This document shows positions 8,122-32,227 of a stretch of DNA of 64,000 nt, in pieces. Source of the stretch: a virus; the IMG/VR virus record IMGVR_UViG_3300046004_000518, positions 32,001 to 96,000 of that record; one strand, written 5' to 3'. Position numbers and translations under genes: made by a program. Every line of letters starts with the position of its first letter. Position 1 is the stretch's first letter. The notes beneath the pieces were generated by a model. It worked only from the letters and a program-made list of their open reading frames with translations. It made no database searches and was not told the DNA's origin.

Positions 8122-10431
8122 TTATTCTACTATAATAAAACCTTCATCGTCAACTGTTTTGTTTTCTAATAAAATCAGTTCATCTGTTGGTTCAACTACA
8201 ATAAACTCTATTGCATCATTGACATAGTCTGCTGTAACTGCACTACCAATGGCAATATTTTCAAACAGTATTTTCTTACTTAATGGCACTTTAATTAGCT
8301 CACTAATCTTACGTGCTAGTGGACGTGCGCCCATTGCACGATCAAATCCAACTTCAACTAAGTGATCAACTAATGCTTCTGTTGAACGTAGTTTAATTTG
8401 TTTCTCTGCTAGTAATTCGTTAAGCTCGTTTAAGAATTTAACAACAATCTTCTTCATGCTAATCTTATCAAGTCCATTGAACTTAACTACAGCATCTAAA
8501 CGATTGCGGAACTCTGGTTTAAAGAACTTTTTAACAGCACTATCATCTTCGCCTGTTTTTTGTAAGTCGCGCCCAAAGCCAATGTTGTTTTGCTCATTGT
8601 CTGCTGAACCTAAGTTACTGGTTAATACTAACATAGCATTACGACAATCCGCTTTCTTACCATTGGATCCAGTAATAGTACCTTCATCCATGATCTGTAA
8701 CAATAAGTTACTAATGTCGGGGTGAGCCTTTTCAATTTCATCTAACAAGATAATTGAATGTGGATTACGCTCTACTTCACTGATTAACAAGCCGCCACCT
8801 AAGTTACCATCTTCGTAACCAACATAGCCCGGAGGAGCACCAATAAGTTTAGCCATAGCATGTTTCTCTTGATATTCACTCATATCAAAACGTATTAACT
8901 TCATGCCTAAGTTTTCACTAAGCAATTTAGCTAACTCTGTTTTACCTGTACCAGTTGGGCCTAAGAATAAGAAATTACCAATTGGTTTGTTATGTGCTTT
9001 TAATCCAGCTTTAGCAACATAAATCTTCTCAAGTACTGCATCAACTGCGGTATCTTGTCCGTATAGTTTATCTTTAATGTTACTTTCTAAACTTGGTAAT
9101 GAAGTTGATGCATGTTTGCTATCAAAGTTTTCTTTTGGAATCTTAGTTGCTTTGGCCAAAGTATCGACAATCGCATCACCATTAACTACCCAAGTTGGAT
9201 TATTAATTTTAAGACGTGCGCAACTCATATCAATTAGGTCAATGGCCTTATCTGGTAAGCGTTTGTCTGTTTGATAGCGTACACTTAAATCAACTGCTAG
9301 TTCAATTGCTTCATCTAAAATCACACCATTGTGGAAACGTTCAAAGTGACCTTTAAGTCCGAGTAAGATGTCTTTGGCTACTTCTGGACTTGGTTCATCA
9401 ATGTTTAGTTTGTAGAATCTGCGCATTAACGCACGATCTTTTTCAAATGATTGTGTATATTCTTCATAGGTAGTCGAAGCAATAACTTTAATGCCGCCTT
9501 TGGCCAATGCTGGTTTGAGCATATTAGCAAAGTCTACACTACTTGAGCTACCTGCACCTGCGCCCTGCATTTGATGTGCTTCATCAATGAACAATATAGA
9601 ATTACCTTTGGTGTTCAGTGATTCAAGTACGTCTTTAAGTTTTTCTTCAAACTCGCCACGGTATTTGCTACCGGCTAATAAGCTACCGATCTCTAAATTA
9701 TAAACAGTATAGGGTTTTAAGTATTCTGGTACATCACCGTTGACAATTTTGTATGCCAAGCCCTCTGCAATAGCAGTTTTACCCACACCCGGATCACCAA
9801 TCATTAACACGTTGGATTTATGACGACGAGCCAGCACTTGTGCAATCTCTTCCAACTCATATTCACGACCAATAACTGGATCTATCTTACCATCAGTGGC
9901 AACTGCATTTAGATTTGTGCAATACTCTTCTAATATTGCATCAGAAAAATCTTGTTTAGCTTTTGAATCTTTGGTCTTAACTGCTTTACCATCGACAAAT
10001 TTATCGGCATAATATTTTACTAGATCTTTGCGGTTAATACCCCATTTAAGCATAAAGTAAGCGGCATGACTGTTGGTCTCTTGACTGATACTTAAGAATA
10101 AATCAACTGGTTCCATTTGCTCACGTGCTGTAAACAACACCTGCGTAAACGCACGATTGAACACACGCTCTAAACTATGGGTACGCTGCGGTACAATTTC
10201 TTTATCCGATAGGTCAACCAGATGATCTTGTTGAGCAGTATATTCGTACAAGTCTGCCAATAATGGATTAGTATCAACACCATATTCGGTTAGTAACTTT
10301 TTAAATGCTCTAAATTCGATAAGTGCAATTAACAAATGTTCAAGTGTTACGTATTCATGCCTATAATCACGTGCAAGTTCAGTTGCCGCTGCAATGATTT
10401 CTTCAATTTCGGGATTAGAATTTATTGCCAT
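8122..10431 (-). CDS. clpA: ATP-dependent Clp protease ATP-binding subunit ClpA-like
   Basis: N-domain HEYVTLEHLL; two AAA+ modules (GDPGVGKT, FIDEAH; GPTGTGKT, RFDMSEY, LLDEIEKAHP); IGF ClpP-docking loop; no ClpB middle domain. Confidence 0.93.
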   Translation of the reverse strand: MAINSNPEIEEIIAAATELARDYRHEYVTLEHLLIALIEFRAFKKLLTEYGVDTNPLLADLYEYTAQQDHLVDLSDKEIVPQRTHSLERVFNRAFTQVLFTAREQMEPVDLFLSISQETNSHAAYFMLKWGINRKDLVKYYADKFVDGKAVKTKDSKAKQDFSDAILEEYCTNLNAVATDGKIDPVIGREYELEEIAQVLARRHKSNVLMIGDPGVGKTAIAEGLAYKIVNGDVPEYLKPYTVYNLEIGSLLAGSKYRGEFEEKLKDVLESLNTKGNSILFIDEAHQMQGAGAGSSSSVDFANMLKPALAKGGIKVIASTTYEEYTQSFEKDRALMRRFYKLNIDEPSPEVAKDILLGLKGHFERFHNGVILDEAIELAVDLSVRYQTDKRLPDKAIDLIDMSCARLKINNPTWVVNGDAIVDTLAKATKIPKENFDSKHASTSLPSLESNIKDKLYGQDTAVDAVLEKIYVAKAGLKAHNKPIGNFLFLGPTGTGKTELAKLLSENLGMKLIRFDMSEYQEKHAMAKLIGAPPGYVGYEDGNLGGGLLISEVERNPHSIILLDEIEKAHPDISNLLLQIMDEGTITGSNGKKADCRNAMLVLTSNLGSADNEQNNIGFGRDLQKTGEDDSAVKKFFKPEFRNRLDAVVKFNGLDKISMKKIVVKFLNELNELLAEKQIKLRSTEALVDHLVEVGFDRAMGARPLARKISELIKVPLSKKILFENIAIGSAVTADYVNDAIEFIVVEPTDELILLENKTVDDEGFIIVE

Positions 10432-10443
10432 TTTTAGTCCTTG

Positions 10444-11277
10444 CTAATTAATTGTTTTAAGTATTTGTATCTGTGCCGCGGTTAATGTTGGTGTTTTAAT
10501 TATTGTATTAACAATTAAATCACCTCTATATTGAGTATTCATTTGATATAAGCCTTTACCTTGTAGACCAAACTTAGTACCAAATTGACATCCTACTGGA
10601 ATCTTAATTAAGTACGTACTACCATCAATTCCTTCTACTTCTTTTTCTGTGCCTGTCATTGCTTCAATTGAGGAAATTTCTAAATTACTAACTAAATTAA
10701 CACCGTGTATCTCAAAACGTGGATCATCGATTACATTAATAATAACATACAGATCACCCCTTGTCAATGATTCAAAGAAGTTGTCACCCATTTGTGTATA
10801 TTTAATCGTTGTACCATTACTTACACCGCGCGGCATTTTTACATCTACATTAAATTTATCATTCTTGGTAGTCTGTACACTTACTGTTTTTTGCTGTTCG
10901 ATTAATGTACTGGCAAGGGTAACAGTTATATTAATACGTAGGTCTTTATTACGTCTTGGTTGTTGCTGTTGGAAAGGGCTACCACCACGTTGACTAAAGA
11001 ACTGACTGAATATATCCTGTGGGCCACCACCACCAAAATGAAATTCAAATCCACCAGGCCCACTGCCGCCTGCACCGAATGGATTGGGATTATCATGTTC
11101 TTGTCTTTTTTGTGGATCAGTTAAGGTGTCGTAAGCACCCTGTATCTCTTGAAACTTAGCAGTATCGCCGCCTTCTTTATCAGGATGATGTTTAGCAGCG
11201 AGCTTACGATAAGCCCGTTTAATTTCTTCGTCTGTGGCGCCGCGATGTACGCCTAGTGTTGAGTATGCATCTGTCAT
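10444..11277 (-). CDS. dnaJ: DnaJ/CbpA-type J-domain co-chaperone (no Zn finger); likely start MTDAY at 11277
   Basis: J domain with HPD, G/F-rich linker, C-terminal GDLYV/GDLIV domains. Confidence 0.88.
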
Positions 11278-11284
11278 AATAGTT

Positions 11285-11313
11285 ATTATATGTGAAAAAA
11301 GGAGAATTGTCAA
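11285..11313 (-). promoter_or_regulatory. sigma70 promoter for dnaJ (probably leaderless mRNA)
   Basis: TTGACA-17-TATAAT, with ATG 7 nt after the -10; the -35 sits in the loop of the upstream terminator. Confidence 0.75.
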
Positions 11314-11329
11314 GCTCTCCTTTTTATTT
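11295..11329. terminator. Intrinsic terminator ending the lysis operon
   Basis: aaaaaaggaga...tctccttttt inverted repeat with U-tracts on both strands. Confidence 0.7.
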
Positions 11330-11349
11330 ACTATCAAAATTACATATGG

Positions 11350-11592
11350 TTAAGTTTTCTTTCTACGTAACGGTCTATTTGGATCTACAGCCACTGGTTC
11401 AGGTGCAACTTCAGTTTCCTCAGCAATTTCAACCATTTCCTGTCCCACTGCTATTTCTGCAATCTCAAAAGTTTCAACAACCGATTCGACTGTCTCGGCT
11501 ATTGGCTGCGCATCTGTCGGACTACTTTGGCTTAACCAGACTGGTTCTGAAGGACTTGTTACAGGGGTGTCCTCAAACCCTGTTACTTTCCC
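11350..11592 (-). CDS. -1 frameshift extension of the holin (acidic C-terminal tail)
   Basis: 81-codon open -1 frame beginning at the slippery GGGAAAG, no usable 5' start, ends just before the terminator. Confidence 0.7.
   Translation of the reverse strand, partial: GKVTGFEDTPVTSPSEPVWLSQSSPTDAQPIAETVESVVETFEIAEIAVGQEMVEIAEETEVAPEPVAVDPNRPLRRKKT
11551..11592 (-). promoter_or_regulatory. Programmed -1 frameshift signal: G GGA AAG plus H-type pseudoknot
   Basis: GGGAAAG-UAACA-GGGU-UUG-AGGAC-ACCC-CUGUAACAA-GUCCU. Confidence 0.7.
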
Positions 11593-11873
11593 GCATCACC
11601 GTTTTCAATTGATGCTACTTTTTCTTTACCACGTGTCCAAGCTGCAATACCTAAGATAGCACCCATGGAGATATGGTACAAACCACCACCTTGAAGTGTT
11701 AGCGGTACCCACATACCTACTGCCTGTCCAGGATTCCAATATTGAAGTAAGTTGAATAAGATTGGACCTAAGATAAAGTCAAACCAAATTGTAGCCATGT
11801 ATGTAATAGCCATTAATGGGCGCCATTTGCTGGTCATCCAATCTTCTGATTTTTTTTCTGCTGCTGTTACCAT
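11583..11873 (-). CDS. Holin, GTA_holin_3TM-like
   Basis: W-x-x-x-WRP motif, hydrophobic segments, GAILG...RGKEK C-terminus; located at the end of the lysis cassette. Confidence 0.7.
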   Translation of the reverse strand: MVTAAEKKSEDWMTSKWRPLMAITYMATIWFDFILGPILFNLLQYWNPGQAVGMWVPLTLQGGGLYHISMGAILGIAAWTRGKEKVASIENGDAGK

Positions 11874-11919
11874 TTTTTGCTCCTAATTATTATTGTTATT
11901 ATTATTTATTAGTTTGTGA

Positions 11920-12129
11920 TTAACTTACTGCGCTGGCTAGATCAATTAAATCATTAATTATTTCGTTTAATTGACTTAATTTTGCTAGATCACCGGCCGC
12001 TGCTTCAATAACTTTAGTGCTTTGTAAATCTTTAAGTAATTCTTTATATTCACTCGGCGATAGCTTACCAGCTGTAAATTCTGCTTCTAATGCATGTACT
12101 TCTATTAATACATTGTCTACACTGCTCAT
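11920..12129 (-). CDS. Hypothetical protein in lysis cassette
   Basis: 69 aa, overlapping start/stop with upstream lipoprotein. Confidence 0.65.
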   Translation of the reverse strand: MSSVDNVLIEVHALEAEFTAGKLSPSEYKELLKDLQSTKVIEAAAGDLAKLSQLNEIINDLIDLASAVS

Positions 12130-30538: not shown

Positions 30539-32227
30539 TTAAATAATCACTGCTTCAATAATACCGACATCTCTAGTGGTCTTATTTTCTAATGCTTTGC
30601 CAAATACTGCCGCGCCATAGTTTGTACTACGACTAACACTTATTGCTACTCCAGGAGTGTTACCTGTTACTAATAGATCACCTTTTTTAACAAATCCTTC
30701 TACTTTAACTGGAACACGACCACGTAATGCCACAGGTTGTCCGTCTAATTCGTTATTCATTAGGTACGCAGGATTGGTTGATATAACCCCTGCAACTGCT
30801 GTATCAGCAAATAATTGTGTAGTAGTAATTTCTTTATCACCACCAAATACTACCACAGTACCAGCTTCGTAGTTGGCATCACTTAGATAGTTTTCTGCCA
30901 AGTCGGCATATTTTGCTGTAGTTGATACACCACTGAATGTAGTAGCATATACTGTGGCAAATGTTGCGCCGACTGCACCGATATTAATTGTATTGTGTGT
31001 TGCTGCAGTAATCGTACTACCTACTGTTAGTCCGTTAGTAGCAATTAAATTACTGCTTGTTATGATATTACCAGTTACAGCCAATGAGCCAAGTGTACCC
31101 ACAGATTGTAAGTTTGAATTTACGATTGCTGTTGGTAATGTAGTGCCCGTAATTGCGCTTGCAGCAACTGATCCAGCAGTTCCATCGATGCTAACACCAC
31201 TTAATGATTGTATAGCACCGGTACGATTTAATGCAATAGCAGTTGTACCGATATACACAGTTGAATTACCCATTACTGTACTTGATATAGTGCCTATTAA
31301 ATTACCTGCTGTTAATACAGTTAAATTTGCACCACTAACATTACCAAATGTACCACTCCATGTACCAGCGGTGATTGTACCAACTGTGGCCAATGCACTT
31401 GCTGACGTAATATTATTCTGTGCCGCGGTTTGCAATGTTCCTGTTAAGTTTGTGAAATAACCGTAGTTAAATGTTGCACCACTAGCACCAATATTACCAG
31501 TAGCAGTTGTACCGCCATTTGAAATTGCAGTTGGAGTTGGAGCATTTAATACAATATTACCTAATACCAATGTGTCATATTTGGCATTGGTCAATGGCAT
31601 CTGTGTTGTAATTGTATCTGGAGTTACATTACTAAATAGATTCCATCTACCGTCGGAGTCATCACGTACAAAACCAGTAAGTTGCTCTACGTTGCCCACC
31701 GCGCCAGTAAATCTTCCATAAAAGCCAATATCAAAATTGTATGGATAGGAAGGAATAGTATCAAAATATACAAGTGGACTAGTTGATACTAATGTTGTTG
31801 TACTGGTTGCGACCGCATTGGCAACATATAAATTACCTTGAATATATACATCCTTAGCAATACCGACACCACCGTCGACTATCAATGCACCACTGTTGAA
31901 TTGTAATGCATTTGTAGCATCTGTTATATGTGTAACACCATTAACTGTTGCACCGGTAAGTATGCCAAGTGATGTAATTTGTGACTGAGTCGGTGTACGA
32001 ATTAGACCGTACAAGTTTGTAGCGATTGCACTAGCAGAGGTTGTTATATTCCCAGTGGCTTCAATAGCACCCGATACTTTAATATTACCGATGTTACATC
32101 CGATATCTTCAGTATCTAATAAAAATTCATTTACTTTAGCAAAGGCTGTACGTAGATCATCCCCTGTTCCGTCGTTTGCTACGGTTCCGATATTGACTGG
32201 ATTAAATTGTACTGTGGTTATAGTCAT
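30539..32227 (-). CDS. Tail fibre/baseplate protein: T4 gp9/gp10-like N-terminus, C-terminal autocleaved chaperone-like domain
   Basis: NIGTVANDGTGDDLRTAFAKVN; C-terminal KYADLAENY...GVISTNPA...ALRGRVPVKV. Confidence 0.78.
   Translation of the reverse strand: MTITTVQFNPVNIGTVANDGTGDDLRTAFAKVNEFLLDTEDIGCNIGNIKVSGAIEATGNITTSASAIATNLYGLIRTPTQSQITSLGILTGATVNGVTHITDATNALQFNSGALIVDGGVGIAKDVYIQGNLYVANAVATSTTTLVSTSPLVYFDTIPSYPYNFDIGFYGRFTGAVGNVEQLTGFVRDDSDGRWNLFSNVTPDTITTQMPLTNAKYDTLVLGNIVLNAPTPTAISNGGTTATGNIGASGATFNYGYFTNLTGTLQTAAQNNITSASALATVGTITAGTWSGTFGNVSGANLTVLTAGNLIGTISSTVMGNSTVYIGTTAIALNRTGAIQSLSGVSIDGTAGSVAASAITGTTLPTAIVNSNLQSVGTLGSLAVTGNIITSSNLIATNGLTVGSTITAATHNTINIGAVGATFATVYATTFSGVSTTAKYADLAENYLSDANYEAGTVVVFGGDKEITTTQLFADTAVAGVISTNPAYLMNNELDGQPVALRGRVPVKVEGFVKKGDLLVTGNTPGVAISVSRSTNYGAAVFGKALENKTTRDVGIIEAVII

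Follow-up and report, generated by a model that had tools for sequence, protein, structure and literature searches.

Does the holin gene of this uncultured freshwater phage encode one protein or two? The window analyzed here, a stretch of 64,000 nucleotides corresponding to positions 32,001 to 96,000 of IMG/VR record IMGVR_UViG_3300046004_000518, contains a predicted 96-aa holin whose reading frame closes directly after a slippery heptamer and is overlapped by a -1 frame that runs on without a start codon of its own. Judging from the sequences of this locus and its relatives, and in the absence of protein, reporter, or read-level evidence, we consider it very probable that the mRNA for the holin contains a signal for programmed -1 ribosomal frameshifting, which would yield both a 96-aa core and a 174-aa tailed form. 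Since the source record is 110,477 bp long at a CheckV completeness of 28%, the phage is inferred to be a jumbo phage.

The holin gene and the frame that overlaps its end

The holin gene closes a lysis cassette, in which endolysin, i-spanin, and o-spanin genes lie upstream on the same strand.

14089 to 13244, minus strand: GH19 endolysin with a PG_binding_1 domain, upstream of the holin
11583 to 11873, minus strand: frame-0 holin ORF, 96 aa plus TAA, the putative short isoform (10.7 kDa, pI 8.0)

Between the endolysin and the holin, the minus strand carries an i-spanin-like gene, an Rz1/LysC-like o-spanin, a lipoprotein gene, and a 69-aa ORF. The 96-aa product scored 28.2 bits against PF11351 (GTA_holin_3TM; curated cutoff, 24.8), with a partial match covering profile positions 55 to 117 of 123, and it matched the phrog_3427 holin family with an E value of 4.5e-8. 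Hydropathy placed its hydrophobic segments at about residues 20 to 43 and 65 to 79, consistent with two main hydrophobic helices and a short helix between them; in an AlphaFold2 model of the in-frame homologue L011, helices span residues 12 to 46, 48 to 58, and 64 to 90 and the tail is disordered (mean pLDDT, 60; tail, about 50). The protein thus has the attributes expected of a small membrane protein of this kind, namely, at least one transmembrane helix, a charged C terminus, and a location in the lysis cassette. On the strength of the profile matches and the cassette position, the 96-aa protein is a holin of the PF11351 family. TeaA, the holin of vibriophage ICP1, belongs to the same family, and its holin activity has been demonstrated experimentally (PMC7182436); hole formation, collapse of the proton motive force, and triggering by energy poisons have been shown for TeaA only. 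In a tblastn search of GenBank phages, the holin matched 14 phage records, all at <60% identity (best, 36 to 37%), and its nearest cultured relatives are jumbo phages at 29 to 37% identity (Sinorhizobium phage Phosso, Agrobacterium phage Atu_ph07, and Pseudomonas phage PA5oct-like).

The 69-aa ORF just 5' of the holin (11920 to 12129, minus strand) appears to be the N-terminal part of a PF11351 domain. Protein P0033 joins a homologue of this ORF in frame to the holin, with a Pfam match (profile positions 29 to 97) that extends across the point of fusion. This fusion implies either that the PF11351 gene is split in the window or that two starts are possible in those relatives. An N-terminal extension of >30 residues before the KWRP motif was seen in 7 of 192 protein clusters; these may be fusions of the P0033 type, of which P0033 alone was examined.

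Three further features describe the 3' end of the gene.

11586 to 11592, minus strand: slippery heptamer G_GGA_AAG in the X_XXY_YYZ phase, adjoined by the frame-0 TAA stop (11585-11583)
11350 to 11586, minus strand: -1 frame extension of 78 codons plus TAA, predicted to encode an acidic, proline-containing, probably disordered tail ending DPNRPLRRKKT
11295 to 11320, minus strand: terminator-like hairpin, read from the sequence (GGAGA, 10 nt, UCUCC, then U6), 29 nt past the tail stop and not past the frame-0 stop

The initial annotation had described a 96-aa holin ending GCG GGA AAG TAA and containing GGGAAAG at 11592-11586, and a -1 frame that is closed by a TGA two codons upstream, stays open to 11350, and adds 78 aa for a total of 174 aa. 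Both descriptions agree with the sequence, in which the ORF ends ...GGT GAT GCG GGA AAG TAA and the -1 frame reads to a TAA at 11352-11350. The tail frame indeed lacks a 5' start codon: its earliest ATG, GTG, or TTG is a GTG at 11448, which leaves only 32 codons, and none occurs before tail codon 47. The tail also has the 16 acidic residues (D plus E) and the basic tip ascribed to it (it ends RPLRRKKT and contains 5 K plus R), and the predicted fused product of 174 aa would have a mass of 19.1 kDa and a pI of 4.55. The -1 frame was said to end just before a terminator, and the hairpin with its T run lies where this would place it; a pattern scan missed it because its loop exceeds the 8-nt limit of the scan. 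The two stems of the proposed pseudoknot are present as well (ACAGGG/CCCUGU or GGG/CCC for stem 1 and GAGGAC/GUCCUU for stem 2), so that every factual statement of that annotation holds.

Taken alone, the window provides little statistical support for a signal. The sequence GGGAAAR occurs 4 times on the two strands of the whole window, versus 10.2 times expected from shuffles, and 99 of 100 shuffles contain at least 4 copies. A single-sequence fold of the signal was no better than folds of shuffles (z = -0.16), using a program that cannot model pseudoknots. Since the heptamer is not beyond chance on its own and the fold is unremarkable, its significance rests on conservation in relatives. The mild depletion of GGGAAAR is consistent with avoidance of slippery heptamers in this DNA.

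Databases were likewise uninformative about the extension. The tail alone matched no Pfam or PHROG family, neither the tail (tblastn) nor the nucleotide region of the holin and tail had a match in 50,697 GenBank phage records, and Rfam returned no family within positions 11250 to 11950. A six-frame search found the C-terminal motif [DNST]RPx[RK][RK] nowhere else in the window, which rules out that it is a tag common to proteins of the window.

Related loci and the coding status of the tail

A protein search yielded 441 homologues in two length classes, of about 91 to 98 aa and about 116 to 166 aa, and a search for longer proteins added 72 of 169 to 195 aa. DNA was obtained for 33 IMG/VR loci and 80 metagenome loci, the latter mostly JGI-type records with some from ENA or NCBI (two titled "marine metagenome"); 111 loci were classified, two of them being cut inside the gene by a contig end. 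An in-phase G_GGA_AAR was located at the junction of core and tail in 67 of the 111 loci, all short-form relatives, which together represent 47 distinct junction sequences; most of these relatives use G_GGA_AAA. In all 67, the position of the heptamer is fixed and the frame-0 stop lies 0, 1, or 3 codons beyond it. A -1 tail of at least 40 aa follows in 63 of them, while three are cut by a contig end and one (L062) is interrupted; complete -1 tails are 62 to 93 aa long and end DPNRPLRRKK. G_GGA_AAR is absent from the junction of all remaining loci, which comprise in-frame long forms and truly short forms. Conservation of GGGAAAG together with an open -1 frame in homologous holins, which the initial annotation had named as a check on its proposal, was thus found: all short-form relatives have the heptamer as G_GGA_AAR, and except in L062 the -1 tail is open to the limit of the contig sequence.

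Ten in-frame loci (L011, L019 to L021, L057, L070, L083, L091, L093, and L100) end in DPxRPxRR(K/V)K. When members of the frameshift class were fused virtually, the fusions were collinear with the in-frame long homologues (L011, L019, L057, and others) from the junction to the C terminus, with the motifs APEV..QPQW.. and DPxRPxRRKK common to both. This collinear alignment indicates that the tail is a real part of the protein family that is encoded in the -1 frame in this clade.

The same in-frame homologues are what one might invoke to argue that the window contains an assembly or sequencing indel and that the gene is truly one continuous 174-codon ORF. However, the out-of-frame layout and the heptamer recur in 67 loci from many samples with 47 distinct junctions, such that the same arrangement would have to be wrong in >60 metagenome assemblies. 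In addition, in-frame relatives differ from the frameshift class by replaced junction segments and not by a single base, and runs of G3 and A3 to A4 are not prone to homopolymer error. On this comparison, an assembly indel is excluded, with essentially nothing left of its probability.

In a tree of the 231-nt core region, frameshift and in-frame forms are interleaved. Since this region is too short to resolve the number of transitions between them, we give no count. In protein P0034 (150 aa), known from one contig, the tail region is read in the +1 frame, and that contig must therefore carry an indel near the heptamer.

Could the tail instead be the drifting remnant of a dispensable domain that a frameshift mutation removed? 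Tail-less homologues do exist (L096, L101, L113, and L114), and the tail of L062 has a premature stop, yet the -1 frame shows the marks of purifying selection. Among the 51 unique tails, 22 different lengths occur, and each indel leaves the -1 frame open to a common, conserved C-terminal motif. These tails contain 0 stops in the -1 frame, versus 322 in frame 0 and 255 in frame +1. Among eight disjoint pairs from the frameshift class, 30, 29, and 92 differences fell at codon positions 1, 2, and 3, respectively (P = 6e-12), and the changed codons comprised 82 synonymous and 50 nonsynonymous cases. Decay also fails to account for the synonymous sites of the heptamer, which are invariant. Within the frameshift class, the tail is, by these comparative measures, evolving as coding sequence under purifying selection, and gene decay is excluded save for a very slight residual chance.

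The distribution of stops also bears on whether frame 0 itself is extended, through an alternative genetic code or stop codon readthrough. Some huge phages do reassign stop codons, but frame 0 of the tail region repeatedly contains both TAA and TAG (among the 322 stops in 51 tails), the homology lies in the -1 frame, and the tail itself ends at a TAA before the terminator-like hairpin. Reassignment is accordingly a negligible possibility that the aligned tails exclude.

A separate tail gene, with its own initiation or with termination-reinitiation at the holin stop, is another possibility, given that stop-start coupling is common in phage operons. It remains unlikely, however. There is no candidate start codon before tail codon 47, conservation of the tail sets in at the junction, and the in-frame homologues carry the tail directly joined to the membrane core. 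Moreover, neither the codon read after the slip (GUA, AUA, ACA, ACC, or AUC) nor the frame-0 stop (displaced by 0, 1, or 3 codons) is constant, whereas the heptamer, which would be useless for reinitiation, stays fixed. We consider comparison with relatives to have established that this family carries a frameshift signal, that the tail is coding, and that it is homologous to the in-frame tails.

A few relatives depart from the common layout. L062 (967 to 1027) has kept the heptamer, has a TAA four codons into the tail, and has a weakened stem 1. In the tail-less L096, L103, and L113, the stop codon of the holin gene overlaps or directly adjoins the start of a gene encoding a coiled-coil protein. 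The coiled-coil proteins 3' of tail-less holins are 75 to 145 aa long with a C-terminal hydrophobic segment, and they could be partners that replace the tail.

Predicted pseudoknot and synonymous-site constraint

The RNA downstream of the heptamer was compared over the 47 distinct junctions, which aligned without gaps. The predicted pseudoknot arms in the window are as follows.

11578 to 11583, minus strand: stem 1 5' arm ACAGGG, with the family core GGG at 11580-11578 invariant in 47 of 47 junctions
11569 to 11575, minus strand: stem 2 5' arm UGAGGAC, inside the stem 1 loop, alignment columns 24 to 30 pairing with 45 to 51
11561 to 11566, minus strand: stem 1 3' arm CCCUGU, with the family core CCC invariant, including a 4-fold synonymous C
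11548 to 11555, minus strand: stem 2 3' arm GUCCUUCA, identified by alignment pairing, covariation, and RNAalifold

Stem 1, GGG(G)/CCC(C), begins 4 to 5 nt after the heptamer, and the 3' arm of stem 2 lies 9 nt past stem 1. Since stem 1 is invariant, it can show no covariation, and its support comes from synonymous-site invariance only. Fourfold sites in the gene body have a mean entropy of about 1.1 bits, and Gly there is mostly GGT. In contrast, all 53 unique sequences use GGA for the heptamer Gly, and in all 53 the Gly codon of the stem 1 5' arm is GGG, synonymous third base included. The codon before the heptamer Gly is GCG, TCG, CCG, or ACG, its third base always being G, and the Ala or Thr codon in the stem 1 3' arm always has C as its third base, while the third base of the Pro codon adjoining that arm is free (1.49 bits). 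Position A42 of the junction alignment is invariant even though it falls at the wobble position of codons for seven amino acids.

Stem 2, on the other hand, covaries. Its six core pairs are 94% paired across the 47 junctions, and three of them are changed on both sides (GC in 35 and AU in 12 junctions; AU in 34 and GC in 13; CG in 34, AU in 8, and GC in 2). None of 500 shuffles reached its covariation score, and slid registers were only 31 to 66% paired. The flanking pair of columns 24 and 51 switched from U-A to C-G between close relatives twice (L001 versus L004 and L075 versus L071). The stem recurs in several versions, namely, GGAACA/UGUUCC, GAAACA/UGUUUC, GGAGA/UCUCC, (U/C)GAAGA/UCUUC(A/G), and GAGGGC/(G)CCUUC, with GAGGAC/GUCCUU in the window, and RNAalifold, given no structure, predicted exactly stem 2. 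The resulting geometry (loop 1 of 1 to 2 nt, stem 2 of 5 to 7 bp, no loop 2, and an A-rich loop 3 of 9 nt) fits that of a classical H-type frameshift pseudoknot. An H-type pseudoknot downstream of the heptamer is therefore a prediction supported by covariation for stem 2 and by synonymous invariance for stem 1.

Two qualifications apply. The 4- to 5-nt spacer is at the short end of the range for known signals, and in-frame relatives with a DPxRPxRR tail still carry pseudoknot-like sequence, which means that part of the conservation could reflect peptide constraint or recent ancestry. Upstream of the heptamer, a conserved Shine-Dalgarno-like stimulator was considered and rejected, as the GGTGAT of the window is not conserved (ATTGAA in L013).

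These constraints also weigh on transcriptional slippage, whereby RNA polymerase would insert one A and place the tail in frame in the mRNA. An extra A in GGGAAAG would give the same protein as a -1 ribosomal slip. Productive transcriptional slippage, however, requires about 7 or more consecutive A or T residues, whereas the A run here is only A3 or A4, and slippage would leave both the invariant G_GGA and the covarying pseudoknot unexplained. Like a separately started tail gene, it is unlikely and retains only a small probability.

Programmed frameshifting remains the favored reading. The locus combines what is looked for in such a signal: an in-phase heptamer, a downstream structure, and a start-less overlapping -1 ORF under coding selection, together with conservation in homologues and the existence elsewhere of the fused arrangement as a single ORF.

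Proposed function and relation to known systems

In the programmed frameshifting model, the majority of ribosomes would decode GGA-AAG and terminate at the adjoining TAA, producing the 96-aa membrane core. A fixed fraction would slip back one base on G_GGA_AAG (tRNA-Gly from GGA to GGG and tRNA-Lys from AAG to AAA), stimulated by the H-type pseudoknot 4 to 5 nt downstream, and would read 78 more codons, yielding a 174-aa isoform in which this membrane core is followed by a tail that is acidic, predicted to be disordered from the homologue model, and capped by a conserved basic tip. The ribosomal nature of the slip, its efficiency, and the function of the isoforms are inferences at this stage.

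Both hydrophobic helices are bordered by basic residues (KWRP ahead of the first and TRGKEK behind the second), with no charges in the segment that connects them. From the positive-inside rule, we infer that the C terminus and the tail should be cytoplasmic. Relatives with only the long form and relatives with only the short form both occur naturally; either form can thus probably function as a holin by itself, and a requirement for two isoforms is not universal. We therefore read the frameshift as fixing the stoichiometry of tailed to untailed subunits. A fixed short-to-long ratio in mixed holin oligomers might allow the tail to tune the timing of membrane-hole formation, with the acidic disordered segment and its basic tip modulating oligomerization or triggering. 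This role in lysis timing, which the initial annotation had likewise offered only as an inference, in terms of a holin:antiholin or regulator ratio, is inferred by analogy with lambda S105/S107 and with the regulatory charged C termini of holins, and which isoform would delay lysis cannot be read from sequence. Charged cytoplasmic ends of holins regulate lysis timing.

The closest mechanistic parallel is the G/GT pair of tail assembly chaperones of phage lambda, in which a -1 slip on G_GGA_AAG, close to the end of a short ORF, extends it into a start-less overlapping ORF. As is proposed for the holin gene, lambda G/GT uses this same heptamer to set a fixed ratio of two proteins with a common N terminus, but G/GT serves virion assembly and the holin serves lysis. 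To our knowledge, lambda G/GT does not depend on a downstream pseudoknot, whereas the holin family mostly uses G_GGA_AAA followed by a covarying pseudoknot. In Escherichia coli dnaX, a -1 slip on a heptamer of the X_XXA_AAG type with a downstream structure yields tau and gamma. The dnaX isoforms, like those proposed here, have a common N-terminal core and differ in their C-terminal domain; the dnaX slip leads to the short form via an immediate stop, whereas the slip in the window would lead to the long form. Dual-start pairs such as lambda S105/S107 and phage 21 S68/S71 (also cited in PMC7182436) derive two isoforms from one holin gene, in a ratio set by mRNA structure, and the proposed frameshift would be their counterpart by recoding. 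The dual-start isoforms arise by alternative initiation and differ by 2 to 3 N-terminal residues, whereas the ones predicted here would arise by recoding during elongation and differ by 62 to 93 C-terminal residues. The window holin does not meet the dual-start pattern itself, as it has one ATG, preceded by AGGAG 8 nt upstream, and its next Met is residue 13, an invariant core residue.

TeaA and other PF11351 proteins are in the same Pfam family as the window holin, and no frameshift has been described for them; the relatives in Phosso (174 aa, with a low-complexity C-terminal part) and Atu_ph07 (127 aa) are in frame. We know of holin isoforms only from alternative starts or separate antiholin genes. 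ICP1, for example, regulates lysis with a separate antiholin, ArrA (PMC7182436). Frameshifting within the coat gene is needed for expression of the MS2 lysis gene L (Kastelein 1982, cited in PMC10885494), and a lactococcal phage lysin is made from two overlapping genes (Shearman 1994, cited in PMC10885494). These two cases are the known precedents that connect frameshifting with phage lysis genes. The MS2 case involves rare spontaneous shifts followed by reinitiation, with no trans-frame fusion and no holin, and the lactococcal case concerns an endolysin and not a holin. Our search of the full-text literature found no described frameshift in a holin gene; the nearest mention concerned Streptomyces BI2 phages, with putative but unspecified frameshifts "near predicted holins." The frameshift mechanism itself is well known; what appears new is its use to generate C-terminal holin isoforms, with conservation throughout a large clade of uncultured phages.

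Holins set the moment of lysis, and isoform ratios are a classic means of fine timing control; the comparative evidence points to elongation recoding as a third route to holin isoforms, conserved over a sizable group of uncultured freshwater jumbo phages. Gene callers truncate such holins: 70 of the 192 retrieved protein clusters are 91- to 98-aa stubs, and about 230 bp is left unannotated. The long isoform would also escape trypsin-based proteomics, because the tail in the window contains a stretch of 70 residues that lacks K and R. The locus further offers a compact, covariation-supported bacterial frameshift pseudoknot for mechanistic study, with natural in-frame and tail-less variants that can be used as controls.

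Three distinct in-frame loci suggest that the reverse, dnaX-like layout may exist in the same family. In L011, L015, and L017/L084 (long forms at L011:3001-3561, L015:3001-3540, and L017:2992-3531), an in-phase G_GGU_UUU AAU occupies the same junction position. A -1 slip there reads UAA at once, and a GGGG...CCCC stem with possible stem 2 pairing begins 5 nt 3' of the heptamer. A second scan of IMG/VR for loci of this type (in-frame long, with a Gly-Phe-Asn junction) found no new ones, so the lead rests on these three, although nine protein clusters are of the Gly-Phe-Asn type. It is conceivable, as a tentative idea that we do not favor at present, that the short-to-long ratio is a selected trait kept by two opposite layouts, a common slip-to-long one and a slip-to-short one in L011, L015, and L017, with the efficiency of the slip acting as a lysis clock that might be sensitive to the host's translational or physical state.

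The DNA just past the holin tail has features of its own. A perfect sigma-70 consensus promoter (TTGACA, 17 nt, TATAAT; 12 of 12 matches) lies at 11285 to 11320 on the minus strand, and its -35 box falls within the terminator-like hairpin, in the loop. The promoter is positioned to transcribe the following gene, which probably starts at the ATG at 11277 and not at the TTG at 11337 chosen by the ORF finder. Directly past the lysis cassette, positions 8122 to 11277 (minus strand) encode a DnaJ-like protein, in which the HPD motif of the J domain is visible, and a 769-aa ClpA/ClpB-like AAA+ protein.
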